DNA from: Balanoglossus misakiensis
Lineage: Eukaryota > Animalia > Hemichordata
NCBI GenBank assembly: GCA_040954595.2
Contig: CM082591.2
Location: forward strand, 124,001 to 188,000
DNA length: 64,000 nucleotides
Reading direction: 5' to 3'
The translations under genes and the position numbers were made by a program. The notes below the pieces were generated by a model that was not told the origin of the DNA, did not search any database, and was given only the letters and a program-made list of their open reading frames with translations. Positions within the stretch are counted from its first letter, which is position 1, and each line of letters opens with the position of its first letter. Shown here piece by piece: positions 2,614 to 42,880 of the stretch.

Positions 2614-2688
2614 AATGATGAGGACAACAATGATGATGATAATGATGATGATGGTCATGATCTTGATGGTGGTGATGTTTGTGGTGAT
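2614..2688 (+). repeat. Degenerate (GAT/GGT)n trinucleotide microsatellite
   Basis: Runs such as gatgatgataatgatgatgatggtcatgatcttgatggtggtgat seen directly. Confidence 0.7.
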
Positions 2689-3051
2689 TTTCTCATAAAC
2701 TTAGGCATTTCTACTCTTTTGAAGATTCATTTAATCTGTGTTAAGTTAATTAATGTGCTCATGTCTTAGATTGTCTTTGTAATCTTCACCACACATGAAC
2801 TAAATGCTACGAAACAGTCAATTTTATGCTGAATATTGTAGATTCATAGATTATTTAAGAATATTGCTTGATCAAAGTAAGCACATTGCCTTCGCAAACC
2901 AATGAAGTTTCAGCGGTAATCCAATTCTCAATGGCATCTCATCGGGTTATAAGATCTTACCTAACAATCCCTTCCAAAGATCCATTGTGTCTGTCATTGA
3001 ATTTTATTTGTGACCAAGACATAATAGAAATAGAGCACCTTTTATTAATAG

Positions 3052-3063
3052 GCCCTGAGGATG
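3052..3063 (+). CDS. Candidate 12-nt microexon (ALRM if phase 0)
   Basis: ttttattaatag|GCCCTGAGGATG|gtaagt; length is a multiple of 3 and the donor is consensus. Confidence 0.4.
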
Positions 3064-3964
3064 GTAAGTAATTTCAACTCTGAAATTAAGTGTATTGCTT
3101 CTATAAACTACTGTGAACATGAGTGTGTGCATTAAAAGCGTCAATAGAATTCATCATTCCATGTTTATGGTTGCAGACAGTGTTTGGCATTCACTTCAGT
3201 TAGGTTGTTGATCATCAAGTGTACTGCGACAGATATTGACTCCCATGCCAGCGGGTGAATGCCCCGGATGTCACTCAGTGGGTGGACTCTATTGGATTTC
3301 ACTAAGATATTCATCCGAATCATCGACAACCATATTTCTTGACAGCCGAATCACTTTCTGATGTAACATTTTTCAAAAGCTCCAGTATGTCTTCACGTTT
3401 GACAAGATGAAGTACCTCAGTACAGAAACGGCAATTGTGAAAACAATGTATGTGCATACTATTACAGTTGTGTACTTTTGCAATAGTGCACAGACAAGAA
3501 ACTTTCTATGCAGATACTGTACTGTCTATACAGCCCCATTGCTGAAATCACCGTAGCGTGCCTTGAAACTGGCCTTCATCTTGTTGAAATAAGGTTTCAT
3601 CCCATCTTGACCTTTCACCCTTGTTACTATCCTTGAAATAATAAAATTTAATTGCCACCACTAATCTCAGTTGGACACTTTTACTGGAACGCTGTAAATT
3701 CCGAAATGGGGCTTTCTGGGACAAGGTCATGCTGTCACTGTGTCTAAATAAGTTTTAACATTATCAGATAATTTAAAACACATTTTGACTTTGGGGTTTT
3801 GCCTCAGAAAATTCTTCTGATGTGAAGTTAAGTGCAGAAAAGGAAGCGTTTTTAAAAGTTCGCCATCATAACATATATTCAGCATGCTGTTATCTCACAG
3901 TATAAATTAATGGCAAACTTGACCGTTTTCTCCATTTATTTCATGTTTCCTTATTGTTTGACAG

Positions 3965-3997
3965 AAAGCAGATTGTTTTGCTCACACACGCCCTACA
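3965..3997 (+). CDS. Candidate 33-nt symmetric exon (KADCFAHTRPT if phase 0)
   Basis: Long pyrimidine tract gttttctccatttatttcatgtttccttattgtttgacag before the exon, gtatgt donor after it; open in all three frames. Confidence 0.4.
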
Positions 3998-6900
3998 GTA
4001 TGTGTACTATACACACTCATTATATTCTGTTTTCGTATTCTTACACCTTGGCGGTTTGATTTTCTCAGGCTGTTGCTGAATACTTGACATGCACAGCATA
4101 GAGTCTGTTGTTAACGCATTTCTATGGTTGGTGCTTTGGAACGTGTTACATAAAGCAAAGAAGTGATTGCATGGATATGTGACTGATTACAGAACAGAAA
4201 TAACCAACCCTCATGAAATTGTCTCATTATTGATCAGGAAAGAAACAAAATGAAAGAAAGGTAGCTTGGTTCATTGAAAACTGTATGCTGTGTATAGATC
4301 AAAGGCGTTAATACAAACAATCACACATATCAGGCAGTAACCATGGGAATGATGGAACACTTCAGTATAATTTTGTACCCTATGGATTATCGCGATTACA
4401 AAAATGTGAAGGCTTGTCGAGCGAAAGACGTTTTGCACCAACGAGACTTTGTATGCCAAGAACAGAGGCAACAAGAAACAGGTCTCATTTTAAACGATCA
4501 AGACATCTGACATTTGCAATACAAGTGGATTTTCAGGGCTTCTTATTTTTTTCATGAAATTTCCTGATACCATCATAATTACTAGTTTGCCGTATTCATC
4601 AGTGATAAGCTGGGTCGCAGTCATAACGTTTACTACTCATATGATGCCTAAATATGCATCCAACCGAGCTAACAGACTTTAATTTATACATGATTACATT
4701 GACTTTTGGTGATAAGCACCTAATCTGGAGCCCAACAGTAATCAATGTTGTCTAAGGGATCCTATCGCCAATTACTGGATTTTACTGATTTTAGGATTTA
4801 TCCAAATCCATTGGGTATGCCTACTTAAAACACAGACGCCTAACAAATGGAAATCCTTCGTTCTTCAGACCCTTTGCAAACCAGAATTCCGTTACAAAAA
4901 CCTCTTGTCTGTCACTGCCAGTCACCTGGCAACCACCCAACACCCACGCAAAACTAATAACCAATCCCGTATAAGCACCCTCCCACCATCCATCCATCTA
5001 CGGTATTCCTCTGTGATCAACTCACTTGGCAACGCAATCAATTCAAGACCTTAGAGAAATTTAGAATGCAGTGGCCAATCCTTTGCTCTGTTAGGTCATG
5101 TCTTACATTTTGCTGACATTTTTGTATGTTACATAACTGACAACTGTTATCTAAAGTGACCCAGAAGATTGAGTTTGATTCACCCGTCTTCACTTAATAC
5201 TTGGTTCATGTGTACTGCTTTCCATTTTCCAGTAGATTCTTACATGCAATTTCACAACACTTCCTAAACTGTGCATTTTACAAATGATACCTCCATATAA
5301 CCTGTCAATGAGAAAAGGGCTTATTGAATTCCATAAGTAGGCTTTTAGTTCCTACTTTAAAGGAGTTTTATATGTAAAATGTTGACACGCAGGCCATAGT
5401 TGCTACAATGCAGAATCTATCGATACGAGTTTGATCGAAAGTTGAAAAACTGCAGCTCTGTGAAATAGTGTTCAATGGTTGTCATTCAATGCAAACCTTT
5501 TGATGCCACTAAACAGTTCTGCTAAAAGCGTGCAAATTTAACTTGATAATTTTATCAGAACTGGCTATTCCTTTTGGCTTAACTACGTTTATTAGCAGGG
5601 GAAAAACAAAAACACTTTCACAACAAGCATTATTATGAATAGCCTATTGGGAAAATAATGAACAATAATCACGTTCAAAACAAAGTGAAAAGTACACTGG
5701 ACTTTAAACAAAATGTATAATTAGTATTTCATGCATGGTTTGTATCTCTCTTGGCGTCGCGTCTTGCAGCCTAGGGAGAACTGTCTATCCCACATTGCTT
5801 CAACTTGGAAAATCCTGAATGCACGCTGTGTTCTTTGCGGCACCTCATCTGATTTCTACAATTCCAGCTAATTATATAACATATGAACGATTCGACACTT
5901 TCTGTATTCCCAATGTGGATCTTCACAGCCAGATAAGACAGCGAGCGCGTCTGTAGTGAGCAAGTTCTTGAGAATACGTTAAGTTTGTCAGTGTTTAGCA
6001 CGTTGTACAGGTGTTTCTATAATGGTTTACAAGCATTTATCACTGATGAGTGGCTGTACCATTCTTTCCATTTAATAACTCTAAAACTGATCTGCTTGCT
6101 TTTAAAAGTTACTTGCAACTGATAAATCACGTGATATCTTTATCGGCCTGCAGTAATCTTGTCAGATACAATCATACCACTTTATATTACGTCATGACAT
6201 CGAATGACTTGCCATATCACCAACATGATTTTTGTTATAATTACAATCGACAAACTCTGATCACATCAGATATGGCATGCTTTCTGATATATTCTAAAAT
6301 TTTCTGGTTTTGGCAACACAATGACATTAAGGTTTATTGTGAGATCTTGTATCTTCTTGTTGAATCTATTCTCTCAGGAAATATGGATATTCAGTCACTT
6401 TCAACAAGGTACAATGTACAAGTGTCTTATATCAGTTAGAATCGCGCTTGACATTTTCTGTGAGACAAGACCGTCCAGCATTTTCTTGGATATTCTGATT
6501 GATGTTATCAGAGAAAACATCTGACTATGACACAGACAGAGGAGTATAAGTATTAAATATTCCCTAAGGTCTCATTACCGTTATTTTCATAATCGCTTTG
6601 ACATGTGAGATGTCTTTGGTTGAGTGAACGTCAATGGATTGGCATTTTTGAATTCTATTTGCTGTTGTTATTTTAAGCTGGTTGACTTAGTGCCTGCTTT
6701 ATCTCTCTACTCACAGAACATGCATTTGTTGAAACCCTTTATTTATATATTGGTTGATTTAAAGTCCCTTGTAGGAAATTGTCTGCACTGTTTTCATGAT
6801 TTTACAAAAACAAAAGCCTATATTGATTTTGATAAAAACATGGTTTCAATCATTCTGTTCAGCTTTTTGCACTGAAATCTGAATGCTTTTCTGAAAACAT

Positions 6901-9067
6901 TGAATGCTTTTTTCGAAAATATGCACTTCGTTGTTAGCGATGGAGATTCAGAGAATTAATTACTTGTCAAGTTCATACAAAATGTTTCATAGTTTATGCG
7001 TAATCCATGCGTCTAGGCTGACTCCACACATGCTGTATTCGTCGTTTATGCAGAGCGAGCTGAAACACAACACCAATACATTGATGTGGTGCGTTTGTAG
7101 CAAACATTTACATTTGCTGTTTGAGGCAAGATTAGTGTTGACATAATCACAATAGAAAAACACAAAATGGGGCAAAGTGTTTACAAACAATCATTCGTAT
7201 CAATATCACATGATACATATCCTTCTTCACTTTGGCCTACATCCAAAGAAGATTTCTCAGAATGGTGTAGTCCATTAGAAGGAACATGTCAATTTCAAAG
7301 GATGCTCAGCTTATTCTGAATATTCTTGCGGAAATGCGTAACATTTTCATTCCTTGTTTGCTTCATTTAACATAATTGAGTTTGGATTTTACACTACAAA
7401 AAGCTTCAAATATGTGAATTTTAACTAAATTGTTGTAAAACCAAACATTCAATGTAGGTATGTACGTATACATGTGGACATTGCTTCCACATTTAACTAC
7501 CAGTGAATCAACAGTAACACAATTATGTTATCCTTTTCTTATTTGACAAGTAATGTCGCACAAAAAGATCTTACAGAATCCCACCAAGAATCGCTGTACT
7601 TATATAGGTTTAAATGTATGGATGAAACGTGATTAGAAGACTGATCTGTCTTTTATGTTTAGGAAACATTAAATATTGATGCTAGATTTCTTTATTCTAA
7701 AGTCTGGACGGGAGATAGTATTAAGGTTTAATAGTTAATTTGGATTATCTGGGTACACCTGACGGCACAATTGTACATTTTCTAAGCTACTTTTTGAATT
7801 GTTCATGTGGAAATGTATCCTGTCTCTGTTTATGAAAAATTAAAGAGGATTTAGGCTTGCAGAGTACTCGTCGTGGCACGCACAGCAAGAACAATACAAA
7901 AGATAAGCATTGTGAATGATATTTAGGAGATGCTTGATTTTAATCATTTGTATGTAAAGGTTGTTGGCAAAGGATTACATTGTCCGATTGTTCAAAGAAT
8001 ATAATCCCTTGAAAATAGCAAAACATTAAGACGGAATCAACCTCCGTATGCGGTCGATGAAACATTTTTTTTTAACAAAGCCAATTCTTTTTGGATTTAC
8101 TTGTTTCCGTTGAGCTGTATGGGTGATTGACATCTCCTAGGACTCACGACACACTTGTCACATGAGATGTTACTGTAGCTATAGATGTTGACATCTTTGA
8201 GTGTTACGTTCATTGCTTTGTCAATAAATAATCTGATTTTCCGGCAGACCAGTTTATTTAGCAATCCGCTGTCTCGGTGTCCTAAATTACTTGGCAGATT
8301 CTATGAAATGACCTGAGGCATAGACGACACTATTGCCACATCTTGCACTCATATATTCTAGGACTCCCCCTTTATGTTGTATATCAATACGATGGAATTG
8401 ACTGTAATCTATTACGATTGCCCAATGTGATAAAGTTGTATCCTAAGGGTAGACAAGGTTGTGATAATTATTACGAACAGGAGACGCATAATTGATTCAA
8501 ACAGCAAGTGTAGAAGATTCTGCAGATGTGATTGGCAGTTCTTCTGAAAGAAATTGACTGATGATAGATTAGGCCTGATTAAATTGACAAGATAGAGTCT
8601 TCATGATTAGTCTTCGTTTAACAAAACTGAAAAGTTATTAGCTACAGATCCAATGCATAGAGAAGCAGCTGAATTTTAGGTGCCTATAAAGACGTCTCTA
8701 TGCAAAGAAAATCAAATCACAACTCCTCGAACGTAGCTGTAAAGTTTTTGATCATAAATTATCAGTTGAGGTCATGATAATAAGCTTATTACGATGTCGT
8801 CATATTGTATGTGATTTACAGTAATGTTATACTAATTCGCAAGTACACACGAAATTAATTCAAAAATCAAGATTTGTGTATTATGTTAGTTTTCTTGTAT
8901 CAAACACAGTTTCTGATGTACAACACCATCAATTCCAGGATCTTTTCCAAGCGCAGATTGTGACATCTCTACATCTATGCTTATAGTATCATATTATGCT
9001 CCATAATCTCTGAGATTAATCTGTCTTAGGTTTTCCAATTACAGGCATTGTAATAGAAATTCAACAG

Positions 9068-9079
9068 GGGGACACTAAA
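9068..9079 (+). CDS. Candidate 12-nt microexon (GDTK if phase 0)
   Basis: aattcaacag|GGGGACACTAAA|gtgagt; weak pyrimidine tract. Confidence 0.3.
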
Positions 9080-11160
9080 GTGAGTTATTATCTTGAACTA
9101 TTTGTGCAAAAGAGCGATTGAATAAGATCTGGTCCAGACCATAAGGTCACTTACAAGGGTTCATTTGATTGGCTATGTCTACCTTAAAAGTACAAGTCAA
9201 AATGAAATGTGATTTTCAGGAGGAATGCGAATGAGGACAAGGACAATCAAAGACACATTTCATTTTTTGACAGCTTCCTATTTGAACTCAGAGATTAATA
9301 TTATACTGTTATATCAGGTGTCAACTATTGGGCAGGATAGCCAACTATTTTCGACAAACCTGATGTCATTTATTGGCTTTTACCAGGGATTTATCATAAC
9401 TGTCTTGACTTTGTTCTGTGTACTTTGTGGTTAATGTGCTGTTTTGACAGCAGTAATATATGGACCCTGATAATTGCCAGAAATAAAATAAGAATATTCA
9501 CTTCTGAAATATATCAGACAATCCCCGGAAAGAGTGCAGTCTAGATGATAGAGATGATATTGAATGTTGTATGTTTCCTATGTATATGTTTTGGGCTATC
9601 CCTACTTGTACGAAACAGATAGCCAGCGTATTCATGTTACCGGCCGGATAGTACAAGATAAAACATTAATTTATCTTGTATTAGGACGAGTTGTTGATAA
9701 ATGAAGGTAACACAATAAGACGTAAAAATGGAATTTGAAGACACTTGGTAAAAGTCACATTTTAGTACTGTGCTTTGAAAACTGTATTACGGTCTAACAA
9801 ATGTGTGTCTAAGCAATGCTACATGTCATTTGCTTTTATTGTTGAGGAAAATCACTGAGCAGATGCAACGTAATCGCAATTCACACTTCATGACTATGAC
9901 ATGACATTTAAACTGATTCTATCACTTAATCAATTTTTACATTATTTTGTTATGAGTTTAGTGCTATGTAGTGTCACGATTGATGTGTACAATTATACTT
10001 GCTGATTACAAATTAGCACTTAAGTTAAAGAGATCAATGTCATTCTATCTGATGAAACACATCTTCAACTTCAGAATGAAGGTAATTGAACACCAATCGG
10101 CAAAAACTATCAAAGGATAATCGAATGAGCAAAGTAATGCAATGATGTGATGTGGAATGTAGTGTTTAGCTCAATCAAAAGCCACTCTGAGCTCTCAGCA
10201 ATTTACGATCTTTACAATTGGATGTACTACTACTAACAACAATGTAAGTGCGACATAAATGGACTTGGAGAGTATTTAATTGAAAGTTATGGTGACTTTT
10301 AAGACAAGTAGTATTCAACCACTGATGTCGTTAAATATATGGGGCAGACAAATCGAGGACAAATCCCTCGCAGAAAAAGTGACATGGCATTTTGAAGTTC
10401 GTGTGTAGATGACATCATGATGTTATCATCACGTAGAACCTAGCACTGCGTAACTGCAATTGACAGATGGTAGCTATGTTACAGTACAGTGACCAAGTTG
10501 AAATCGGATGTATCTGAAATGTACATCATTGAGACGACACCAATCTATCATTTGATTGCATAGCAATGATAAAACATGCAAATATTGAACAATATCCCCA
10601 AGTTGCTCCTTTCCAAATAACTTCGTTATTTATTCAACAGCTGTTCGGCGTCCGACAGACACGCAGTTTCGATCCAACCATCCCTGTGACGTGAGCAATG
10701 TTTATCTCCCTCGGGGCTATTCGCAGTATAACGAACAAGTCACGACATGACTTTTAAGACTATTCGATCTTCTGCCATGGGCATTCTACTGCTGCAAGTA
10801 ACGACAATGTCCGCCGACACAATTATGTCTACTCATTCTGAATGCAATAGTTGAAACATAAACTCAAACGAATATTAACCAGAAGTGTATGATCTTTAGG
10901 TTGTAAATAACGTATCCCACGCTTTCCACATTAATGATCTTGCATTCACTTCGATGAGGAAACTACTTACATCCTGGAATGACATCTCTAACTGTTCTGA
11001 CATATATGATATATGATTATCAAGAAATACTAAAACAAAATGTTTATATGAACATTTTAGTACTGAAATAAATACACTTGAAAGTTGGGGTTCATTAAGG
11101 TTTTGTTAGCCGAGACAACAAGAAGTATGTGGCTTTCTCGAATCGTGATCGGCAATTATA

Positions 11161-11466
11161 TTATACCAGTATATTGATGGTGTAAATCACGCTATTTGAT
11201 TGGTCGAGACACGACACGTGACCGTGATATATTAGCCATATACCACAGTCATATATCATAGTTAAAGAAAATGCCTTTTTAAAATGTTTTATGCAAAGTT
11301 TCAATATACTGGCATAATATAATAGCAATAAAACACCCCCAGCCATGGTATACCACTCGATTTTGACCAGTTCAACTCCATATACGCACTCGCTATCGCT
11401 CGTGCGTATATGTCGTGAACTGGTCAAAATCTCGTGATATACCATGGCTGGGGGTGTTTTATTGCT
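11161..11466. mobile_element. Palindromic non-autonomous DNA element (MITE-like) with a ~143-bp hairpin
   Basis: 11324-11466 is a near-perfect inverted repeat (agcaataaaacacccccagccatggtata ... tataccatggctgggggtgttttattgct, with inner arms gattttgaccagttca/tgaactggtcaaaatc). A 17-bp inverted repeat with 1 mismatch links 11161-11177 and 11301-11317. Confidence 0.75.
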
Positions 11467-14400
11467 TAAATACATCATGGTCATAGTCATGCCCTTTATC
11501 ATGTGACATTTGGAGAAACTAAAGGCACACACATTAAGAAGATATCACAGAAATAGATGTATTTGTGGGTTCTTCATTTCGACTGCTTACTTAGCTGAGT
11601 GTAAAGAGATATGGTGTGTTGTTAGATCAATATGGGTGGCGTCCATTTGACCAGATCTTTCAGTACAACTGCTAACGTTGGAGTCGTGCGAATGTAACAT
11701 TCTTAAGTATAAATGCAATGATAGACAGAACTTGCAACCTGTTGTGATTATATACCATGGACTGATCAATCTAAGTATTGATGTGTGTATTGTAATATCA
11801 AAGCACATCTAGCGAGAAGACACGATAGTTTATAACATGTGTGAACACTTCCTATGATCAATACATTTGCACTACGTTCTATCAAATATTAATTCACATT
11901 TGTGCACATTTTCTGGTAGCGACACAATTATGCTTATTGATCAGACAAACTGATTAGGCAATTTATGCACTGGTTTGCATGCTTACAATTGCAGTCTATT
12001 AGATGTCTGACTGACTGTCTGTCTGCCTTTTTGCGTGTATATCTTTTATTCCATCTGTCCCTCTACCCATCCACCAGTACGCTTGCATTTTGTCTGAGAG
12101 AGTTTCTAGGCTAGCAACAAAATTCTCTGTTGCCAGGAATTATTTATGTGGTTTGGTTCATACTTATAGCGTGTGCATGGAAATATCACATTCCGATCCA
12201 GTATGTCAGAATAGTGCAAACTTTAAGAGCGAGAATGATAGGCTGAGTGATATATGGGAGTGTGTTAGACATTTTCAGTTCAGGAAATTTAACATGAATA
12301 TTTAAAGCCATGCACAAAAATTTTGTATATACTTGTCCTTTTTTATATGAGCTGGCTCTCGATAATAAATAAATAATAATAATAATAAAAAAAGTAAACA
12401 AATCATTTCATCTTTGCTTAGTAGTATTTGTTGAATAAAGGAGAACAACCAAACATAGGTGATATTATAGCTTGACCATAATGGAGTGAGGGAGGTTATG
12501 CTTATCTCAACAGTAATTTTTTAAATCTGCAAATTAACTAGCGATTATCTGTTGAATGTATTGACAGTCATCCTTAACAATTCTATGAGAGATATTGAGA
12601 GCCTTGTACCACAGAATCATTATACAGAGTATCAATTGGAATGTACACGACAAGCATCTTTAACTCCATTCTTAGTTCCTCATAGAAACGAATCTCGCTA
12701 GGATGGGAATGTAGTTAACGCTTGCATCGATGCGTGTTTAATAAGCTTACAGGGTGCTTTATACGAAGTCTCTTTGGTCGTCAAAGAACTATGATCACCA
12801 AAATTGAGCCTTGATTAAAGTTCTTCCTTGAACACTTTGGCTCCCAAAGATCAAACCACAAGACACGCGTAACCTTAGTATAAATGTCACCGGCATTCAT
12901 TAAGTCTATATTAATGCTTTCAAGCTATAGAACTCCACATAGCAGAAAGCCTGATACAAAATTACTAGGCACTAAGTCTTTATAGCAATGAACGATTATT
13001 TGTAAGAACTTTTATTAAACGTTAATGAGAAAGTAAGGGTTATATTTTGGCATTGTGTTGCTAAGTATCAAGTTAAAATATTCTTAATTAGTTTTTAAAC
13101 TATTCAAATTGTTCGTGCTTTTTGGCACATAGCAGTTTTTATTGTGTTGTATGTATTTCAAATATAGCTGACTGTGCAAATCCACTTTTGAAAGGTTGCA
13201 GTCACGCGAGACTATATCTATCTCTCTCTTTGAACTTCTCATTTCCTAGATGATTTTTTTATCAATTTTAATATTCAAAAAATTCATTGACATTATGAAC
13301 GAAGCCTCCTAGAATCTAAAAATAGATTACATTTGAACTGTCTTCAGGAGGGAGATAATAATTTCTGAACTTTAATAATGAGAGCGACAGTGACAGCCCC
13401 GCTTTGCTTTGCTCACCATGTATAGATGGAACTCTTAATATCTTATAACAAGCCATTTGCTCGTCTCCACTTTACAAAATGACCAGTAAGCCTAATTACA
13501 TCATGCTTTTCATTTCTGGTTAAAGATTAAATTACATTTTATCCTAATCTTTAATTATTTTTTTCCGAATGTAATCCCTGGTGAAGTGTAACTTTATGAT
13601 ATATACCAGCCTGAGTCTGCAGAGCATGAATTAAACATATTTTTTTCTTGTACATGTTGTATGAATAATCCTGTGTTTTGATAAAACAAACTATGGTTTA
13701 CACTTGTATATTATTGAAAGGCATATTTATGAGAAACACTAGCAATGGTACGGTATTCTAAAGTAATTCACATGGAAGAATATGCTTGTTTGAAAACAGC
13801 TCCATGCTTATGAATTCTACATTAATTTTCATTATTGCTGTTGGTTTACACAGTCCCAGATAATGTCCAATAAATTGTTGATAACAAATCACCAGTTCGT
13901 GTAGTGACTAAGAATGCCCTCAGCAATTAATCACAATTATGATGAAAATGTAGTTATAAGCTAACTCAATCTGAGTTGTTCTGCAACACATGCTGACATT
14001 CACATGTATTTCAATTTTTAATTCCCCCTCCGGATCATAAGAAGCCTATATGTTATCCGTTTTACCACCAGGGAATAGCTGTTGCCATATCAAGAACGTG
14101 GCGACCGTCCAAATTGTCTGCAGGTCAGGGATTGTCCCCCAAAGGTCACATGTTAACACTGATGAATGCGAATCTTTCTTCCCACACGCAAAACAACACA
14201 TCCCATATATAATATTAATATTACTTGTTTGCCTACAGCATTTAAAATGCCAATCCTGAAAGTTTTGCAAAAAAGAAATACACATCAATAGGGGAATCAT
14301 GATTAAGACAACATTCTTTGATAAAATATCTACCCTTAGCCAATATTAAACAATAGTGCTTTCCCATAAAGATAAACCGTTGTGAATCAAAATGAGGGCG

Positions 14401-14827
14401 GTTGTCGATTGGAATGTTTCAAAGCAAGACATGAACAGCACTTTTCGTCCTTTCTTAATTGTTTGAGCAATGTTCCAACCACCTTAAAATCTTTCATTCT
14501 GTTTTTAAAATGATAATGATTTTTATTTTTTAGTAACAATATTGACTACCTCTAGAAAGGCCTCTTCCACAAATACAACATGATATATTTTGCACACGAT
14601 TGAAATAATTTTTAAATAATAATCCTGCAGTGGGAGGTACATAAAGAATAGCTCTCAATTGTTTGTCGTGTATCGGTTTCTGCCTCATTACAGTTAAATG
14701 ATCTCAAACACACGAAATCAATATGCGTTATATGAGTTCACTTTCATCACAGTTATACAACTGTATTTACACACACATGTCTCAGTGTGGTTCTGTACAC
14801 GTATTCATAACATTCTAAATTTCATAG

Positions 14828-14860
14828 ACAGAGGTTGCCCTGTACAAAAGGCACCCCAAA
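14828..14860 (+). CDS. Candidate 33-nt symmetric exon (TEVALYKRHPK if phase 0; xRGCPVQKAPQ if phase 1)
   Basis: cattctaaatttcatag|ACAGAGG...CCCAAA|gtgagt. Confidence 0.35.
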
Positions 14861-16723
14861 GTGAGTAGATCATCAGAAAGGAAGATATAAGCCCCCAGAG
14901 GGCATCCTTTATTCTTTTTTATTGAATGCTACTCATGTCAAAGGTTGCTTCATAAAGCAAAGTACAGTCATTTAGATATCCTACAATCATGTTACATTTA
15001 GCAAACATTCTGAACCACAACAAGTATTTTATATCATAAAATTCGAGACATTGTCAGAAACCATTTGGATGTATGCATATACATGCATGCAAGTATGTTC
15101 TATTTCATTTGCGCAAGTTGTTTATGTATTCCATACAACTATAATGACTTCATCTGATGCTTATTGCACCTGTCGTGCGATTGCACAGTTGCAAAGGCAG
15201 TGACAACGTAATCCCGATTGTAAATGCGATGGTCTGTACACGAACCAGAAATAATCAGATGGACAGGAAGGTAAATTCTACATTATAACCTGATTTTAAC
15301 CTCTAACCATTGGTGGATTGGACTTACGTGCCCCATTATTGTTTCCGCATGGCATTCATTTCATGTATATGTGTTTGTGTGTGCAATGTCTCAGCGTAAT
15401 ACAGCAAAAGAGACCGCGTTAAGCCAATCTGCGTCAAAAGCAGTAGTACAGTCTGCTTGACTTGATTTCGTGTATACTTCGTGGCTGTCCACTTCAATTT
15501 ATCAGGGATTTAAGCTCAGGGTACTTTACAGCACTCTGATTATCCTTTTCGTAAACTCCCCCATACAATGTGACTTTCAATAACTGAAGGGTTATACGCC
15601 CCAATTTAAATTTATATTCATATATATTATTGCTGTTAAAATGTTTCGCCCTCTGTGAATACACCTCGCTTTATTACTCCCATTTCCTTCGCGATAGTTG
15701 TTTTTATTGCTTTTTAAATAAACGATGGCTGAATGTCAAATATTAAACATACCCCTTGGAGTGAAAGACGTGCATGATTCTCTTCGTAGAAGGTAAATTA
15801 TTCCAAGGTATCCAAGACTTTTATGACTAGCGTGGATTTGTATGCGCTGTGCTTTACCGTGACGATATACGCCAGCGGGATAGGAAATGTATTGCGCAGG
15901 GAATTCTCTGTTTCGTCTTTGATGACCACAGTTTCAACACCATGCCTCAAGGCAAAGCTATTATGCAGACATCGCAATTTGTAGCATTAAAAGTACCAGC
16001 TCCGGAGAGCTCTTAACGCTCATAGAAAGTGGTCGAATATATCGAAATTATTCATTTTCAATTTCACATGCTCCACTGACTTTCTATACACCTATTCAAG
16101 AGTACGTAGAATTCAATTTTTCTCAATGGCGCTTTGTAATCGGTTAGTTCGAATGTACATGAACAAAAGATTCTGCTTATGTCTTTAGAGTTGCGGAAGT
16201 GTTGATGTTTGGGTCATGAAATCTTAAACAGAAACATATCTTTGCATCCAACTACATTTTAAGTTCTTGCTTTTAACATAGGTGGTTTGTTAATGGTACA
16301 GAGCATAAGTAAAACTGTATCGTTGAAAGAACTACATATTTAGATTTAATGAAATATGACCAGACTTGCTTGGCCACTGTAACAGTAGTTGATAGCCATG
16401 TGTGGTTAGTAGACATTGAAACCCCATAAATAATACTGTATTACTGTAGTACTACTATGTATTAAGCTGTATACCTGAACTTAAGTTCTTTGTAGTTGAT
16501 TTAATGAAAAAGCAAAATTATGCTGAGATTATTTCATGAAAAAGAATTAATCCTTAAACGTTGATATCACTTAATTGCTGAAATAGGAGAGTCCAAGTGA
16601 GGCAAAACAACTTGTTCAAAATCGACGCTTGAAAGCACAAATAATTTTCCCTGACCCACTCACAAACATCATTATTGAAGTACAGACTGTCTCAGTTTAA
16701 GGGATATTTTCTTGTTCTCTCAG

Positions 16724-16815
16724 TGTTATGTGAAGATGAAAGCTCTGGTTCAGGAATAACAGATGTTAATTTAAATATCCTACCAGCTAGCGACAAGAGG
16801 AAACCAGGTACATCG
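16724..16815 (+). CDS. Exon 5' of the microexon array (phase 1 to phase 0), contains a KR site
   Basis: ttttcttgttctctcag|TGTTATG...ACATCG|gtgagt; only one frame is free of stops. Confidence 0.7.
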
Positions 16816-19800
16816 GTGAGTATCATCAAAATGTTGTCATTTTGACATTTTGTCGTATAGTTTAAAGAAAAGAGCTGGTCAGAATGTTGTTCTTTCAAAT
16901 TAAGCTTTACAAGAGACACTAGTTGGATTTTTGTGTTTTTGTGGAAATCAATTCTCTACCATGCCAAACTTTGTTGAGTTGTTTTTTGTAATAAAACTGA
17001 TTTATTTTTCTCTCTCTCTTCATTTTATCCCAATTCTTCATGTTTGCAGCATATGGTAAGTAACTATGTTGTTTTTAACCTGTCCAATCTCTCCTCAGAG
17101 GACTGTGTTCTGGCAGTACATGAGCGCCGCCACATGCTAGATGAATGTGTGAGAGTTTCTCCTAATCCAAATTTGTGGCGTCAGAAAGTGTACTTTGCAA
17201 TCCACAAGAGTGCACTGATTTTTATCAACATCTAGGGAAATGACATTTAATCATTTTACACATAACTGACAATGTGGAGAACATATAAAGTTACAATATT
17301 TTGAACTCGTAAATTTTACATAAGCTTATTATTTCTTTTATCACATATCAAAACTACCGGCACAAGATTAAAGTTTCCTGCAGAATTAGGAATATATTTT
17401 CACCTACATATCACATAAATTCCATTGGATGCCGTGAAATACTTGTTGATCAATACTTATACCATTTTACGACATTTGTCTAATGTCATAAAACATGCTG
17501 CTGTCCCAAATTCTGTCAAGGCAGAGTAGTATACAAGAAACAATGATAGGTCATTTTGTATCATAACATGATACCATATCAAAGTCCTGCCTTTCAGACA
17601 ATACCCCCGGTAGATTATCATCTCCTTTACCTGTAATGGCATATTCACTGCTTTTGAAAACTACTGATATGCTTTCACTAGAATTTGCAGACACATTGTC
17701 GTTAGTTCTCAAACAGTAAATATGTTTACCTTAGAGAGAAGACGTTGGACCACCATTACTAAAATGAACATTTTGCAATCCAATTGTGCTATGACCATAA
17801 TGACGCCGTGGTCTAGCTGTTAAATGGACATAGAGTCTGATATCAAATAGTGCACTACTCATTCTACACATCAATAACTTGCTGCCCCATTTTTGCCTTC
17901 AGTATAAGATATTGTTCTTTTTTATTTGCTGCTGGGTCACTTCAATGTGGGCGGTCTTATCATGTCAAAAAAGTTGGGAAAAGGGCACAGGCATGCAGTA
18001 GTAGTAGCACTAGTACTGAACATTTTTCATGAAATCTCAAAAGTCTTGTGTTCAAATGTTCATTAGTTTAAGATTCCATACATGTTTTAGTAATTTGCTC
18101 TATATACGCCAAGTCTTGGGTAATTCGATGCGCTTTAAAAAGCAATAACAGCTTGTCTTACACAAGTCGTTTCCCGATTATTGACTGAATTACAAATGCA
18201 TGTGAACGTATTTGGTGGCACTTTACATATATCGTCACAATTAACAGTTAACACTTTCTCAAATATGTTGTAGATGACAACATAGCATTTTAGTTCACAA
18301 TGGGCACTGCTTACCACGCGGGCGATTCGCTGACGCCATGCTAATGATTTCAAAGTCACGTTATTACACTAATTTGCATATTAACCAAAGCTAAGTGGTT
18401 GCATATCCACAGTCTATGTTCCATTACCCTGTTTTATTCACCAAGGTTTCCGAAAGAAGTAATTTCCAAACCAGAACTCCCACATTATGCAATTAAAATG
18501 AAGCAATCGCACCTTCTCACAATAAAATCCATGGAAAACGTTGCTAAGAAAATTATTTCAATTCAATGCCTGGTCCATTAATTTTAATTATTCTTTCTTT
18601 CTCTTTTTGACCATGGTGCATTTATTGAACAGGGACAAAGGGTAAGTGTTCAAAGAATTTGAAAATTACATGATTTTAATAAAATTGTAAATATCCTGTA
18701 TATTACCATTACACCATGTTCAAAATATTTCATGTGGCTATACTATGGCATAATGATGGAGCAACTTAACCAATAGATGGTTGTGATGAAATATGTACAA
18801 TGAACTGAGCAATACTGGCTTATCCAGTCATACACACACAAGTTAAACATTAGTTTTTTGAGGAATGAATCAATATCAACCTTTAAAGTTTGATACAATT
18901 ACTTTCGTGCAAATAATTCACATCTGATATATGTTGTTTGGTTTGTATCCAAGCAACAGTGACATTTGTTTACACAAAGCGATTTTATGATGCTTCACCG
19001 TGTACTGACAATAGCTCCAACAGTTTTTGCTCTAATACAAATGTCTACCTGCATCTTTAAACAGAGCCAGGACTGCAAACTAATTTGATATATCCTGAAT
19101 TTAGTACAGACCTGGCTATATGAAATCTGTGATAATTTATTGTTCATGTACATCATGATTATTTGAGTTATCTTCATTACAACAATTACTGCATTTATCA
19201 TCATTTTCCAAATAAACCGACAAAAGCAACACTTTAATTAACTTGAGCACTTCCGGGCTGATGATCTGTTCATTAAGCCCTGGAAGCATTTATGACCACA
19301 AAACTAAAACCTAACCATAAAAACAAGTGCTCAAATTCTCCAATAAAATCTATCTAATTTTTAAACCAAGCAAATAATACTTTACTGTTTATATCAAGGG
19401 ATGGATTTACAACTTATACGTACTAGACAGTGTTAAATTCAAACAAGCATTACAATTCATTAATTTTATAGGAAATAGAAAGAAATAGGTTGGATACACT
19501 GATTTAAATTTTGTAAGATTTTATATTTAAGTTCGTGGTTCATTTCTTGAATTTACTACATAGAGCATACACACACAACTCTTTGGGTCAAGAGTGTAGT
19601 TTTAATGTTTTAAATGGTGGCGCTATATTAAATATGTAGTCACAGACAATTCTGATGCAATGCACCAAAATCTACATCAAACTCACAACCAAGCTAATCA
19701 GAGTGTCTTTTCTTTTGTTCTTGACATGGAATTCTACAACTTTCACACCGGCAGATGGTAAGTATTGTATTGCCTTGCGAAGTTTTCATGCCAATTTGAC

Positions 19801-22358
19801 AGCTAAACATATATCGGAATAGTGTTCTCAAGACAACTTCTTTAAGTCATTTCCCTATAGATCCTTACAAGATAGATCTACTCAATGTACGACTGCGGTT
19901 TGTGGTAATCGTCTACGTTTCTACTATCTGCACTACTATTACTTATTCTTTTTCATGTATTGTTTTGTTCGTAACATTCAGTTTCATGAAAGAAAAACAT
20001 CATTGACTGTCTAAACATTACATTAATATTCTTTCATTTATTTCCTAATTCTTGTTTTGCATCAATCATCAGATGTGTAAGGTGAGTAAAATGTGTTTAA
20101 CAGTTGGTAGCATTTTTTTAAATTTCTTAGAAACATTTATTAAAGGCTGTTAATTATGGGAATACTTAATGCCTCGATTGTGAAATGTGCTACACTACCC
20201 TATGCTTGCCAAGCCCACTGGAGGGGGGGAGGGGGGGGGGGAGCGGGGTATTAATTCTCACAACCATGTTATGCAAAATTTACCATGAAAAGGGCATTAT
20301 CAGTTATTGTCCTGCACAAGAGCGAATGCCGAAAAAATGACATACAATCGAACAAAATATTTATAACATGATAGGATTACAATGAATGATATTTGCCATG
20401 GGTTTTATACATGGCATGAATGTGCAGAGATGCCATCCTGTTCTGGGGAATGTTAATTGTAATTATGCCAGGTTATCACTATAACAAGGTTATCATTACC
20501 TGTGGCTTGATGGACTTCTGCAGACCTAAAGGAATGGGTGTTTCTTCCACATTGAGTCCTGCAAATTTTCCCTCAGAAGTTCTCCAAATCCTGGCAACAA
20601 TCATTCATCCTTGCCAACCTCTTCATATTTTCTTCTTCTCCTTTCAACGTGTTTTTGGGGTCGAGAATATGCTATCATCATCCGACATGAGGCTTTCACC
20701 GTGAACGCGGTGAGGTGTCACGACTGCATGCACATAAAATGGCTTCATGTACAAATTCAGTGAAAGCACCTGGTGAATTAACATATACTACATGTAAATG
20801 TGATCACTCGCAACCAGTAGGAATCTCTATACACAGCTGTACCGGTACACATTCTGATTTTTAATTGGCTGACATGAAAGCAGTGTGTACATGATTGATC
20901 AAGTCTTACACCAGGTGCTGTTGATGTGCAATTGACTGCAGCCTGCATGTCATTCAATATCTGAACGATTGAACTCCACTTGTGTATTATCCAAAACAGG
21001 CATTACACTCAATGAATAAAACGTCACAGCGCCATCTAACGTTTGAGTGATATTTCTACCTTGTCTTGTACAACTTCCAATAAGTGTTTAATGTATTACA
21101 CACAGTAACATACATGTATGACACACCATACTAATCCCTTTGTATTTTTCTTCTTCTTGGTATGACATATCTTGGCCGTTATGACAATCAGCTTCATCCA
21201 GCGGTAAGTCATAATACTCATTTTGTAAGCAATTGATGAGTCTTATGCCAACAATTCCTAATTACAGCCCAGATGCTTACACTTGATTAGAGCTTGTTGG
21301 ATATGAAAATGGCAATTCAAGAATACATTTTGTGTAGGTTTATATACTGTTTTAATTATTTATCCATAACATTTGATGAATCTTTCTTTTCTCTCAATAT
21401 TCTCTCAAACACCTGTGCAGAACTGTAGGAATGTAAGTATACATTCTAATTGTTTTTTTTCTGCACTCAAACTTCGTTTCACAGATAAATAAGTCAGGTT
21501 CTTATTATTGCAGTATTTTACATTCCAGCCTACTTTCTGGAAAAGTATTCAGTATATTTTTGGAGACAAAATGAGTGGCTATACATCGTCACCATTAAGA
21601 GTCATGCCAAGACATGAAAAACAAAGCATTGTCAAATCGATTAGATGGAGGCACTGAAAAAATATTGATACTTGTCTTGCCAGGACCACTTGCTTCAAAT
21701 AAATAACCTATTTGGTATTTCCTTTATCAGTTATGGCCAGGAATGAGACCGGCACCAGGCAAGAAGGTAGAACTTATCACTTTGGGATATTTTCTTTCTT
21801 GAATTACATTATTGTTGGCATAATTCCTACACAAGGTGCCCGATATCGTATATATTCAAACATAGTAAAATTATTTAGATGGAATAATAAAGTATTCTCT
21901 GACAACCAACTCATCTTGTAGCTTTTTAATTTTTTTCTGCAGGCGTCGAACTCTGTTATGAGAAAAATTATCGCAAGCTGGGAGAAGCAAGTGTGGAACG
22001 CAAATCAAATGAATCAAAGAGCAAAGGATAAAGCGGCCAAAAGTATGTACACCAATAATTTAAGATAGCGCCCTCATTCTGCAGATTTTGGTACACCTGT
22101 TCTCACCACATCCAAATTAAAGTTTTATCAGCAAAGAAAGATTTCCCACAATGTGTAGTTTAATCAAAACTCTGTGTTGATCTCTGTCAGCAAATTAGCA
22201 TTTCACTTCTTACACATAATTTTCATTTCCTTGTCTCTGCAGTGGGCTCCGCATTCGGCAAGTGGGAAGAGCCAAAATATGACATTGAATACATACCAGA
22301 AGGACGCCCTCTTTCGAGTACGAAGGATTTGGACGTCTCTATGGGTCCCGATAGTTAA
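16724..22358 (+). CDS. Microexon-array gene encoding an uncharacterised protein, 5' end unresolved: xLCEDESSGSGITDVNLNILPASDKRKPGTS|HM|GQR|M|MCK|LHPA|NCRN|ASNSVMRKIIASWEKQVWNANQMNQRAKDKAAK|MGSAFGKWEEPKYDIEYIPEGRPLSSTKDLDVSMGPDS*
   Basis: Exons 16724-16815, 17050-17055, 18633-18641, 19755-19757, 20073-20081, 21192-21203, 21421-21432, 21943-22042, 22243-22358, all with AG/GT boundaries. Each large flanking exon has only one open frame and both give phase 0 at the array. Confidence 0.75.
17050..17055 (+). CDS. Microexon, 6 nt (HM)
   Basis: ~45-nt pyrimidine tract, tttgcag|CATATG|gtaagt. Confidence 0.8.
18633..18641 (+). CDS. Microexon, 9 nt (GQR)
   Basis: ttctttctttctcttttt...tgc...gaacag|GGACAAAGG|gtaagt. 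Confidence 0.75.
19755..19757 (+). CDS. Microexon, 3 nt (M)
   Basis: tcttttcttttgttctt...ctttcacaccggcag|ATG|gtaagt. Confidence 0.7.
20073..20081 (+). CDS. Microexon, 9 nt (MCK)
   Basis: tttcctaattcttgttttgcatcaatcatcag|ATGTGTAAG|gtgagt. Confidence 0.8.
20221..20248 (+). repeat. Poly-G tract in an intron
   Basis: gagggggggagggggggggggagcgggg. Confidence 0.7.
21192..21203 (+). CDS. Microexon, 12 nt (LHPA)
   Basis: tttttcttcttctt...acaatcag|CTTCATCCAGCG|gtaagt; an internal CAG would instead give a 2-nt exon. Confidence 0.7.
21421..21432 (+). CDS. Microexon, 12 nt (NCRN)
   Basis: tctttcttttctctc...cctgtgcag|AACTGTAGGAAT|gtaagt. Confidence 0.8.
21943..22042 (+). CDS. Exon 3' of the microexon array (phase 0 to phase 1)
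   Basis: tttttttctgcag|GCGTCG...GCCAAAA|gtatgt; only frame 0 is open throughout. Confidence 0.75.
22243..22358 (+). CDS. Last coding exon of the microexon gene
   Basis: tttccttgtctctgcag|TGGGCTCC...GATAGT TAA; phase matches the previous exon. Confidence 0.65.
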
Positions 22359-22481
22359 AGCAGAAGAACGTATATTCATTATTTTGGTAAAGATTTTCTT
22401 GTTTGTGTTATCTATCAATGACATTTGAACTTGTCCTTTTTGATGAGTGTTTGTTTAAATTATCTTCAATTTTCTTTTCAG

Positions 22482-22791
22482 ATACATCACTCAGAGCCGT
22501 CCCCAACCAAAGTTCCGGTCCCAACACACGTCCTACAATCGTGAAATATATTTTATTGATGTCGTCAAACACAAAAGCTATTTGTTACTGTCTGACCAAA
22601 CGCAATAGCTACTCAATGTCACCCACTTTTGTAACATTTTCCTTCCCACACTTAAAGAAGAAACTTGTGCTTCGCAGAATAGAAGAAGAAAAAAGCATTA
22701 GAAAAATAGCACAGCTCCGAGAATGAGAAACTTTATAGGAAGAAAGATTCTGGACCAAAACTAATGTTCGTCAACGGTAAAATGGTAATAA
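22482..22791 (+). other. Probable 3'UTR exon with polyA signal of the microexon gene
   Basis: Donor TTTG|gtaaag after 22386, acceptor tttcttttcag ending 22481, AATAAA at 22786-22791. Confidence 0.4.
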
Positions 22792-23928
22792 AGTTCAAAA
22801 GACAATGGATTTGATGAACTTTACCCTCTGACCCAAGATGATGTCACAGTTTACTAAATTATATCCATACATGGCAAATATTGATCGAGAACAATGTGAC
22901 CTGGCGATATTTCTATCCCAATTGGAATCTGTAATTGGCAATCGATACATTATTAATTCTTTGTTTTACCTTGAAATGTTAAGATGTAAGGTTTAAGTTT
23001 ATGGTGAATGGGTAAATTAAAAGATAGGTTCCCGTCTGCAATTACAGTTACAAGTGTGAAGTTGTCTTCTGTCATGAGATTTGCAAACACCTTTTAATCT
23101 CTCCAGTTTTCATTGTAACTTGGTGAAAGTGAAGTAGAAACCATCTCTCTTTTGTACAACCATGTACATGTGCAAAGGGGTTTTTACGACAAACAATTCT
23201 GGGATTAGAAAACCAGAGTGGGGCTTAGATCGAAGAACTTCTAGTCAGAGTTCAGGACCTGTCCTGAATGATTGGCTGGCGATGGCAAATACAAGGAGAA
23301 TTGGTCTGGTCAAAGAAAGACAATTTGCAGGAGAGACTGAATGTCGATAATTAAGACAAGTATTTGGAGCAGAAATCTTTTACACCATTTTATTTATTTA
23401 TTTATTCATTAAATATAACTACAACAAACCAACAAATAGGATAGTCAATCTGGATGAAAATACATTTCTGGTCGCGGAGGAATGTTGCGAAATACTAGAT
23501 CAATAGTAAATCATCGCATTGATTGAACACAGCACAAAACAGGTGGCAACAGACAATATTGGAGGCAATGTTTACAAAAAACAACACGCATTCATATGAG
23601 CAAAGAGATTCTTCAGCAAATTGTTAATATTAAATATGTTAATTTTTAGGTGGTTAGTGCAATAATTACATAATCTTTGAGTGGGTGCTAAATCCCACAC
23701 AGACCGAGATCTGTCAGATTTGATGAGTAATTTGAAATATTGTCAGATTATGTTTTCCACACATGGTCACAATATTAACTCCCATTCCAATGTGACTAAA
23801 GAGATTATATTTCTATAATCCTGACCACCATGAACAATTTGTAACAGTTCTTCTATGATCACATGCAATGCAACCAGATGGTCTTGGTGCTTCAGCAGCT
23901 TTGCCGTACCATATCCAATTACATGTAC

Positions 23929-24754
23929 CTACACCAGGTCTTGTTGTTCACCAGCTATTAAATGACCTGAAAATAGACAAGCACCTTATGAGAAAGAGCA
24001 GGAGAGAGAGGTGGGGAGAGAGAGAGAAATGCAGAGAGAGAGAGAGGGGGGGGGGTATACTTTGTCAAAAGAACAAGATTTGCCAATTATTTTGTGCAAA
24101 AAATAGCTATGGAAAGTTCAAAAATCTAGCGTTAGATGTTATAGCTGTTGGATCTGAATAATGATTTGAGAAAACTTTTCGTGTTTTACCTTCCTTATCC
24201 AGAAAATACACAACAATTTCTCTTTCATCGGATTCTTCGCTACTCTCTTCACGTCCACCGTGGTTCGGTATAAGTCTTTTCCCAAATATAGAACCACCGT
24301 TGTTTTGTCTTAGTCTTTTCCCAAATAAGGAACCACCGTTGTTTGGTCTAAGTCTTTTTCCAAACGAAGAACCGCCGTTGTTTTGTCGAAGTCGTTTACC
24401 TAGGAGAGAACCACCGTTGTTTGGTCTAAGTCGTTTACCTAGGAGAGAACCACCGTTGTTTGGTCTAAGTCTTTTTCCAAACAAAGAACCACTGTTGTTT
24501 TGTCGAATTCTTTTATCAAGTGAAATATCACTGTTGCCCAGTTTTTCTTCAGAAGAAGTGCCACTGTTCAGAACCATTTGTTTGTCAAACAAGTCTTCAT
24601 CATCAAACCCAGACGGGTTAACTGCATCAGTGTCACTGATTTCATGACTCTTCTCAACACTGGTGTCCAAGTTAGGACCTGCAGACTCAGACTCCTTCCC
24701 GGATGCCAATGTAATGCAGATAAGGACGGTGCAAATGATTATATACCCTTTCAT
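23929..24754 (-). CDS. Multi-copy amidated neuropeptide precursor NP1 (about 200 aa; exons 24754-24190 and 23966-23929)
   Basis: Signal peptide MKGYIIICTVLICITLASG, acidic spacer, six KR-[10 aa]-GKR units (IRQNNSGSLF, LRPNNGGSLL x2, LRQNNGGSSF, LRPNNGGSLF, LRQNNGGSIF), then LIPNHG-GR and an acidic tail. Acceptor ctgtag lies just before the ATG; the final exon after ctattttcag encodes GHLIAGEQQDLV*. Confidence 0.93.
23999..24055. repeat. (GA)n / poly-G microsatellite in the last NP1 intron
   Basis: ggagagagaggtggggagagagagag...gggggggg. Confidence 0.8.
24265..24516 (-). repeat. 39-bp coding tandem repeat (about 6.5 units) encoding the NP1 peptides
   Basis: gaaccaccgttgtttggtctaagtc-type unit recurring every 39 nt. 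Confidence 0.9.
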
Positions 24755-26677: not shown

Positions 26678-27090
26678 TTATGAAGAGAAAAGGTCGTTGA
26701 ACGTTTCAGAGAAGTCTTCGTTTGCCTTCAAGAGATCCATGTAATCGTCTATTGAACGACAGTTTGGTTCTGTGTGTGAATGGAAAAATATGTAAGTCAT
26801 TAAGTAATATTCGTAGAGTTGCTGATTTCAGACGTGTATACTTTGCCATGGGTTGCAATTGATAAAGGGTTGGTACAAATTAACCATGAGTAGAACATGG
26901 CGATATATATCGTCTCACCTCCTAATTGACAGATTGCCAAAACTGTTTTGATGCCAAGGTTAGACGATTCTGCCTTGAGTGTATCACTTCGCCTTCCAAT
27001 TCCAAATGCTGGACCAGGTCCTCTCGCAGCATCTGACACATAAACACAGACAACGGCAACCAGCAATGAGAGGACAATTCCACACTTCAT
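26678..27090 (-). CDS. Single-peptide neuropeptide precursor NP2 (87 aa; exons 27090-26919 and 26769-26678), predicted peptide ARGPGPAFGI-amide
   Basis: MKCGIVLSLLVAVVCVYVSDA|ARGPGPAFGI-GRR-SDTLKAESSNLGIKTVLAICQLG/EPNCRSIDDYMDLLKANEDFSETFNDLFSS*. Phase-1 intron G|gtgaga...cacacag|AA, acceptor ccttgcag just before the ATG, AATAAA on the - strand near 26285. Confidence 0.88.
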
Positions 27091-41900: not shown

Positions 41901-42453
41901 TAATGTGATTCAAACTTCTCTACCAATTACATGTACCAAGTACTGGTAAGCTTTCACACAAAATTGTGTATACTAATAAAGGGCAATACCTAAAACAAAC
42001 AAGCCAAAGAATTATCGGAAGGACATCTTGCATGGACATGGATTAATGTGCGAGTGTGTTTTTAGGAATCTGACTATGTGATCGAAGAGGGCGTGCTTAA
42101 AACTTCACTGAGTATATTCAGGTGGAGATTTTAATCTTCTCTGCAACAAATTACATACTTTGAACTTGTGGATATCATGACACCAAATTACATTGCAAGT
42201 GTTTATTACTTTTTGTTAATATCTCACCTTTAAAGACAAACCCACCATCATGTTTGAGCCCTTGTAGTTTATGGTCTTGACCACACCCAAAATCAATTTC
42301 AACTCTGAAATTCTGGGAAGTGTAGTAGACAACAAGCGAGATGACAAGTAATATCAAAACCAGCACTACACATAACAGAATACATTGAAACCTGGACCTG
42401 GCGTGTGCAGGTGTCTTGGTGGCACTGGCAGACTCGGCCATACCAGTTGTCAT
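38999..42453 (-). CDS. Type-B carboxylesterase/cholinesterase-family protein with N-terminal membrane anchor (neurotactin / para-nitrobenzyl-esterase-like), 572 aa from M42453
   Basis: Exons 42453-42228, 41754-41551, 41286-41194, 41011-40760, 40648-40461, 40244-40088, 39978-39892, 39510-38999, all GT-AG and phase-consistent. Motifs GIPYAKPPVGELRW, SEDCLYINVWTP, PVMVYIHGG, NYRL, GNYGLFDQIAALEW, FGGNP, PVVDG, GNVAQE, AFHGWD. Confidence 0.93.
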
Positions 42454-42880
42454 TTTTGTAATCTGTGACTGTGTGACCCTTGCTCCTGGAATCTCTGATC
42501 TGCTTTGGAAAGATATATAACATGGAAAAGAAGTAGGAAAGCATCTGCTCTGATGTTTGAAAAACTAGAACGTGACTGGCTTATTGCGATTCTAGAAAAT
42601 GACTTCATTGAAGATATTATATGGTGACTCTGACTTTGGTTGTCTTTTTCTAATTATTTAACTTTGGACTGGGAGAAGGGAGAATGTTAACAAGTAAATG
42701 CAAAGGTCAACTAGGAAGATTGACGCAGGGCAATTGATCAAACTGTCTGCTTGAGATTTCACTACAAAGATTATCAGTCTCAGATGCAAACTCTGAAGAA
42801 GACGACAAATATATTTATAATCTGACCATGAAGATTGTCTCACTCCTGACTTCATGACTTGACTAATGTAATTATCTTAC

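Follow-up and report, generated by a model that had tools for sequence, protein, structure and literature searches.

Organization of the Locus

A 64,000-nucleotide stretch of the genome of the hemichordate Balanoglossus misakiensis (GenBank assembly GCA_040954595.2, contig CM082591.2, positions 124,001 to 188,000 of the forward strand; hereafter the window) carries on its plus strand a gene in which six consecutive predicted microexons of 6, 9, 3, 9, 12, and 12 nucleotides (nt) are set between ordinary coding exons. The array is preceded by an ordinary exon at 16724..16815 (phase 1 to 0) with a strong acceptor and donor and a single open frame, which is expected by chance in 15% of random 30-codon stretches. 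This exon encodes a Ser/Gly and acidic stretch, a candidate pro-region, and then Lys-Arg-Lys, a candidate N-terminal cleavage site five codons from its end. Microexon 1 (17050..17055, 6 nt) includes an in-frame ATG, microexon 2 (18633..18641) has 9 nt, microexon 3 (19755..19757, 3 nt) consists of a lone ATG codon, microexon 4 (20073..20081, 9 nt) contributes an ATG and the first cysteine, microexon 5 (21192..21203) has 12 nt, and microexon 6 (21421..21432, 12 nt) contributes the second cysteine. A seventh symmetric exon of 36 nt (21731..21766) has a weak GTAGAA donor and ends in Pro-Gly-Lys-Lys, a candidate amidation and cleavage signal. It is followed by an ordinary exon at 21943..22042 (phase 0 to 1), predicted to form a single long helix, and by the last coding exon at 22243..22358, which reaches the stop codon. 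A candidate polyadenylation signal, AATAAA, lies at 22787..22792. Immediately after the stop codon a possible intron (22370-22481, plus strand) has a good acceptor at 22482 and a weak donor.

A hidden gene of six microexons had been proposed earlier for this locus. The positions of the six donors in this original prediction (17056, 18642, 19758, 20082, 21204, and 21433) and of their CAG acceptors are borne out, as is the statement that the flanks at 16724-16815 and 21943-22042 have one open frame each and are in phase 0 toward the array. The proposed junction of microexon 6 with 21943 is wrong, since a homologue from Ptychodera flava (described below) contains the residues of the intervening exon at 21731-21766, which had been overlooked because its donor is GTAGAA. 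Upstream of each microexon acceptor no AG occurs for 49-84 nt (69, 82, 49, 78, 84, and 81 nt for microexons 1 to 6, respectively), while the corresponding AG-free zones of the three ordinary exons measure 19-42 nt (20, 19, and 42 nt). The zone upstream of microexon 6 contains an in-frame stop, so that a longer internal coding exon is impossible there. Microexon 6 is matched in P. flava; microexons 1 to 5 rest on frame and on splice signals that equal those of microexon 6 in strength, splice scores being rough because the matrix behind them consisted of generic frequencies. That the gene is real and includes microexon 6 is practically certain, and the use of all six microexons is highly probable.

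The array is far above chance. Symmetric GTRAGT microexons preceded by a pyrimidine tract had a mean of 0.031 and a maximum of 1 per sequence in a simulation of 1000 third-order Markov sequences of 5.1 kb; under the same null, six GTRAGT donors by themselves reached only P = 0.028. A detector without a length rule, applied to both strands of the window, returned seven sites, six of which were the array, all multiples of three (the seventh is described with the carboxylesterase gene below). The corresponding null had a mean of 0.63 per 128 kb and a maximum of 3 in 60 runs, a large margin even with detector thresholds chosen after the sites had been seen. The array is non-repetitive: no tandem duplication of it was found, and convincing duplication was not seen among the flanks, for which flank-to-flank scores of 16-28 (shuffled 95th percentile 22, maximum 28) are compatible with shared splice motifs. 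Elsewhere in the gene, MAFFT aligned 16757-16813 with 22300-22355 (plus strand), so that the end of exon 16724 falls on the protein's C-terminus with 32% identity, either a weak internal repeat or chance.

A Homologue in Ptychodera flava

The last coding exon (37 residues) gave five matches when used as a query against 1.84 billion proteins. P0001, P0002, P0004, and P0005 were dropped as long bacterial-type repeat proteins with summed weak repeat matches. The remaining match, P0003 (XP_070546325.1; E = 3e-4), is an uncharacterised protein of 79 residues from the acorn worm P. flava, with which a second protein of 133 residues (P0007; XP_070546262.1, isoform X1) is clustered. Although the query was the last exon alone, both also hold a homologue of exon 21943-22042. 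Four exons of the window align with P0007 without gaps from microexon 6 through the stop (57 of 87 residues identical), with identities of 4/4 in microexon 6, 11/12 in 21731-21766, 22/33 in 21943-22042, and 20/38 in 22243-22358, and the residues of microexon 6 in P0007 directly precede the homologue of the 36-nt exon. These proteins are likely to represent the orthologue of the window gene in the one species for which a homologue was found, compared at the protein level.

Both P. flava models appear to be truncated, breaking off at the array. The first residue of P0003 is the methionine encoded in the 36-nt exon, while P0007 carries 46 residues upstream of microexon 6, including a hydrophobic stretch. 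F, S, L, C, P, and V make up 18 of the last 22 residues of this extension, as compared with 26 of the 87 residues downstream of it, and the window frame is matched at just 3 of the 46, all three being the codons that cover the acceptor. We infer that the extension is intron sequence that was translated, with its 3' splice site conserved. The expectation that such a gene would escape standard annotation is thus upheld in P. flava, where the models contain none of the exons upstream of microexon 6. Residues 1-3 of P0007 differ from microexon 4 by one substitution, probably a coincidence.

Other searches added no homologue. A word-based search with the region of exon 21943 against proteins of 71-2000 residues gave no candidate, with poor sensitivity, as P0003 is in this range and was missed; one with P0007 found P0003 alone among five candidates. 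An alignment search against proteins of 234-2000 residues yielded none among 7993 scored, from an alignment in which exon 16726 had been misplaced on the C-terminus. A metagenome scan produced 178 pattern matches, of which none was confirmed. Pfam returned nothing for the exons of the gene and nothing meaningful for P0003 or P0007, PDB gave no match by sequence or by fold, and the top scores in Atlas (0.89 and 0.84) were under threshold. A search of sequencing runs with 21900-22850 turned up no RNA run, an outcome that weighs neither for nor against transcription.

Neural Microexons and Micro-Exon Genes

Known neural microexons are short insertions by which intracellular and surface proteins are tuned. 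The acceptors of the array resemble those of targets of the eMIC domain of SRRM3/4 (Srrm234), and neural, eMIC-dependent inclusion is putative on this analogy. The window exons are 3-12 nt long, symmetric, and provided with consensus donors, as compared with 3-27 nt and frame preservation for the class. The earlier comparison with this class is also supported by the acceptor layout, in which the AG-free zones of 49-84 nt are accompanied by pyrimidine tracts set back from the AG, and each of the six has a branch-point-like motif at a distance of 48-70 nt upstream. In flies and mammals, too, the acceptors of such targets have long AG-exclusion zones and set-back tracts, and the eMIC domain has been dated to bilaterian ancestors (10.1101/2021.02.24.432780, 10.1101/2024.09.17.613571). 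UGC occurs in 74-79% of mammalian eMIC targets and is not a strict requirement (10.1101/2024.09.17.613571). The TGC near the AG that had been pointed out in the window lies within 20 nt in four of the six microexons, compared with 27% of 922 CAG sites, and when TGCAG is excluded in two of the six, compared with 21%. The array differs from known eMIC targets in that six microexons stand in series and would build a ligand rather than tune a domain surface.

The gene had also been called similar to the micro-exon genes (MEGs) of schistosomes, which it resembles in its run of tiny symmetric exons, its introns of 0.2-1.6 kb, and the difficulty of annotating it. In MEGs, however, most of the coding region lies in small symmetric exons, all have a signal peptide, and they evolve fast and appear confined to flatworms (PMC4350168, PMC10526429). 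The microexons make up 13% of the 130 modelled codons of the window gene, or 22% with the 36-nt exon. Microexon 6 and the 36-nt exon, the part of the array that can be compared, are the most conserved part of the protein (15/16 identical to P. flava) and give no sign of accelerated evolution, whereas the mature regions of MEGs change fast (PMC4350168). On the features that could be compared, the MEG label fails. The 64 in-frame isoforms first envisaged were an arithmetical count; in that sense the number even rises, since the seven symmetric exons can be combined in 128 ways that are all stop-free, but such a count says nothing of independent skipping, and the placement of two cysteines in separate microexons argues for joint inclusion.

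A Predicted Secreted Peptide

The Lys-Arg-Lys of exon 16724 and the Pro-Gly-Lys-Lys of the 36-nt exon bracket the 17 microexon codons, and no other dibasic pair lies between these two sites; the downstream site can be compared with P. flava, while the upstream Lys-Arg is known from the window. The glycine before Lys-Lys is kept in both species, and microexons 4 and 6 hold one cysteine apiece, six residues apart. Identity to P. flava is 15/16 up to Gly-Lys-Lys and 42/71 beyond (Fisher p = 0.008), a comparison that covers one species pair and the C-terminal half of the predicted peptide. A mature peptide would be expected to leave such a peak of conservation before Gly-Lys-Lys. When the modelled protein was shuffled 200,000 times, 0.33% of the shuffles placed a dibasic site no more than 10 residues before the array and Gly-basic-basic no more than 15 residues after it, and 0.018% had the two array cysteines as well; these percentages overstate the case, the features having been picked after the fact. 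Of the 22 residues of the predicted pro-region 4 are acidic and none is basic, and two neuropeptide-like precursors adjoin the gene downstream on the minus strand.

These features suggest, tentatively but ahead of the alternatives discussed below, a neuropeptide precursor gated by neural splicing. Slightly less probable is the specific proposal of an undescribed hemichordate neuropeptide, a disulfide-ringed, amidated sequence spelled in steps of 2, 3, 1, 3, 4, and 4 residues by six non-repetitive neural microexons, the ligand being made only by cells with the eMIC programme. In such a gene the six exons of 3-12 nt and the 36-nt exon, likely to be included together in neurons, would spell a single secreted peptide, their inclusion would need the eMIC form of Srrm234, and an unseen 5' exon would supply the signal peptide. 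Prohormone processing by dibasic cleavage and conversion of glycine to an amide is standard, and here would yield a Pro-amide of about 31 residues with one disulfide. Convertases would cut after the Lys-Arg of exon 16724 and at the Lys-Lys of exon 21731, PAM would amidate the C-terminal proline, and the cysteines of microexons 4 and 6 would close an eight-residue ring. Skipping of the array would preserve the frame and remove the ring with all 17 residues; because it would be neutral to the frame but delete the ring, splicing would act as an on/off switch for the ligand rather than as a shuffler of 64 variants.

Several points weigh against a neuropeptide precursor. Lys-Lys is a poorer convertase site than Lys-Arg, and a peptide precursor with at least ten exons is unusual. 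High identity persists for about nine residues beyond Lys-Lys, and the 71 residues past the cleavage site are still 59% conserved; AlphaFold models P0003 as one helix (residues 8-47, mean predicted local distance difference test score 70) from a three-row alignment. There is a single homologous species, no homologue support was found for exon 16724..16815 or for microexons 1 to 5, and enrichment of UGC over the CAG background is not shown. No known neuropeptide family was matched in Pfam or by motifs in published precursor supplements. Finally, a scan of all ATGs in 1-16720 did not establish a signal-peptide exon, the sole phase-compatible candidate (6321-6408) having a weak donor and being possibly a translated pyrimidine tract; such tracts mimic signal peptides. 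The 5' end of the gene may be split or lie beyond the window. A supplement to PMC8557429 rejects a claimed hemichordate precursor partly for want of a signal peptide, and the present gene calls for the same caution.

Alternative Explanations

The acceptors resembling those of eMIC targets and the conserved, helical C-terminal part also suit an ordinary eMIC target, that is, a small intracellular protein in which neural microexons lengthen a flexible linker before the helix and the basic pairs either serve for localisation or arose by chance. Neural microexons are found mostly in intracellular proteins, and the scan of 1-16720 that yielded no signal peptide is in line with such a protein. This is a serious rival, though on balance we regard it as unlikely: the maximum of conservation lies at the end of the array and not at the helix, the bracket of cleavage and amidation signals with two cysteines is rare in the shuffles, and the 124 upstream plus-strand open reading frames (ORFs) hold no Pfam domain, apart from one sub-threshold chance match. 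The methionines of the array invite another explanation, by which the upstream exons are untranslated and the ATGs of microexons 1, 3, and 4 and of the 36-nt exon provide alternative N-termini for a short protein. Three of the six microexons have an in-frame ATG, one of them being ATG alone, P0003 begins at the methionine of the 36-nt exon, and the open frame of exon 16724 has the chance rate of 15% given above. Such a start-codon switch is nevertheless improbable, since ATG fits the consensus of both donor and acceptor and so may have been selected for splicing, the symmetry of all six microexons would be needless ahead of a start codon, and P. flava shares the residues that precede the methionine in the 36-nt exon.

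Independent skipping of the seven exons, all of them symmetric, could in principle yield up to 128 secreted variants, as in an MEG. The small share of the coding sequence held by microexons and the conservation of the comparable part of the array speak against this, as does the unpaired thiol that would result from loss of one cysteine, and we consider it about as improbable as the start-codon switch. If the gene began at microexon 6, as the P. flava model has it, microexons 1 to 5 would be unused or belong to non-coding 5' forms, and the 46 upstream residues of P0007 with their hydrophobic stretch might be cited in its favour. That extension looks like a translated intron, however, in both its composition and its lack of match to the window frame, and the signals of microexons 1 to 5 equal in strength those of the confirmed microexon 6, which makes a start at this point very improbable.

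Relation to Known Peptide Families

Within the reading as a neuropeptide precursor, the cysteine pair and the C-terminal Pro-amide predicted from Pro-Gly-Lys-Lys in both species recall the calcitonin-type peptides, of which both are family features (PMC6002491). The ring of the window peptide, in contrast, would lie mid-peptide, starting about 13 residues in and leaving a tail of 11 residues, while starfish calcitonin has 39 residues and an N-terminal ring; on account of this ring and tail the peptide is not filed under calcitonin-type, and there was no profile match. A hormone of the CRH/DH44 type in the C-terminal helix was considered and rejected, there being no such Pfam match for P0003 or P0007 and the Gly-Lys after the helix being absent from P. 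flava. Resemblances to allatostatin-C/somatostatin, elevenin, MCH, PTH/TIP39, CRH, endosulfine, and caldesmon were likewise considered and not supported. Motif searches in the supplements of PMC10508912, PMC5627052, PMC4772807, PMC6188537, and PMC8557429 found no related precursor; figures and bioRxiv supplements, which lay outside this search, may list hemichordate ones. Among the papers listed in searches pairing microexons with neuropeptides, none describes a mature neuropeptide encoded by a microexon run, as judged on titles and the openings of abstracts.

If the proposal is true, a run of six microexons builds most of one signalling peptide, and a splicing programme decides which ligand a cell secretes. 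With annotation failing at the array, catalogues of neuropeptides would then systematically lack such peptides, which could be ligands of orphan receptors. A blind spot would also be exposed, since the only database records seem to stop at the array and leave an 'uncharacterised' fragment of 79 or 133 residues. Even without a peptide, exons of 3, 6, 9, and 12 nt in series offer a compact minigene substrate for the rules of eMIC action in an untested phylum. Hemichordates are neighbours of the chordates and echinoderms. Expansions of hemichordate receptors with unidentified ligands have been described (PMC9400282).

Upstream Candidates and Neighboring Genes

Upstream of exon 16724, splice signals and frame point to a candidate exon at 14828..14860 (plus strand), which would measure 33 nt with a start at 14828 or 29 nt with one at 14832, ends in phase 1, and has a frame that fits 16724. 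A further candidate, placed by splice scores, lies at 9045..9079 (plus strand, phase 1 to 0), to which a 7-nt candidate at 10075-10081 (plus strand) would bridge the phases. Small-exon candidates at 3052-3063, 3965-3997, 10075-10081, and 10200-10243, also on the plus strand, have fair splice signals and may belong to the 5' part of the gene.

The microexon gene had been described as lying tail-to-tail with two neuropeptide genes. This holds for the nearer one; the second lies further on, on the same minus strand. The nearer gene (24110-24754, minus strand) encodes a neuropeptide-like precursor of 215 residues with a signal-like N-terminus, an acidic spacer, and six related copies of a peptide with Gly-Lys-Arg after every copy; the repeat has a period of 39 nt and 6.8 copies. 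The peptides may be SIFamide-like. The exact sequence was absent from the protein collection, and the motifs of the neighbouring peptides were unmatched in the literature search. Its peptide ends loosely resemble those of starfish tachykinins, with an inexact GxF motif (PMC4772807). The second precursor-like frame, at about 26920-27090 (minus strand), has one short peptide, ending in Gly-Arg-Arg, immediately after a signal-like N-terminus. Farther downstream, a multi-exon carboxylesterase (PF00135) occupies 39000-42500 on the minus strand and has a hydrophobic segment at the N-terminus that is likely to be a membrane anchor of type II. The seventh site returned by the microexon detector, a 5-nt site at 39643 (minus strand) with a 50-nt AG-free zone and a GTRAGT donor, falls in this carboxylesterase region and is within chance expectation.

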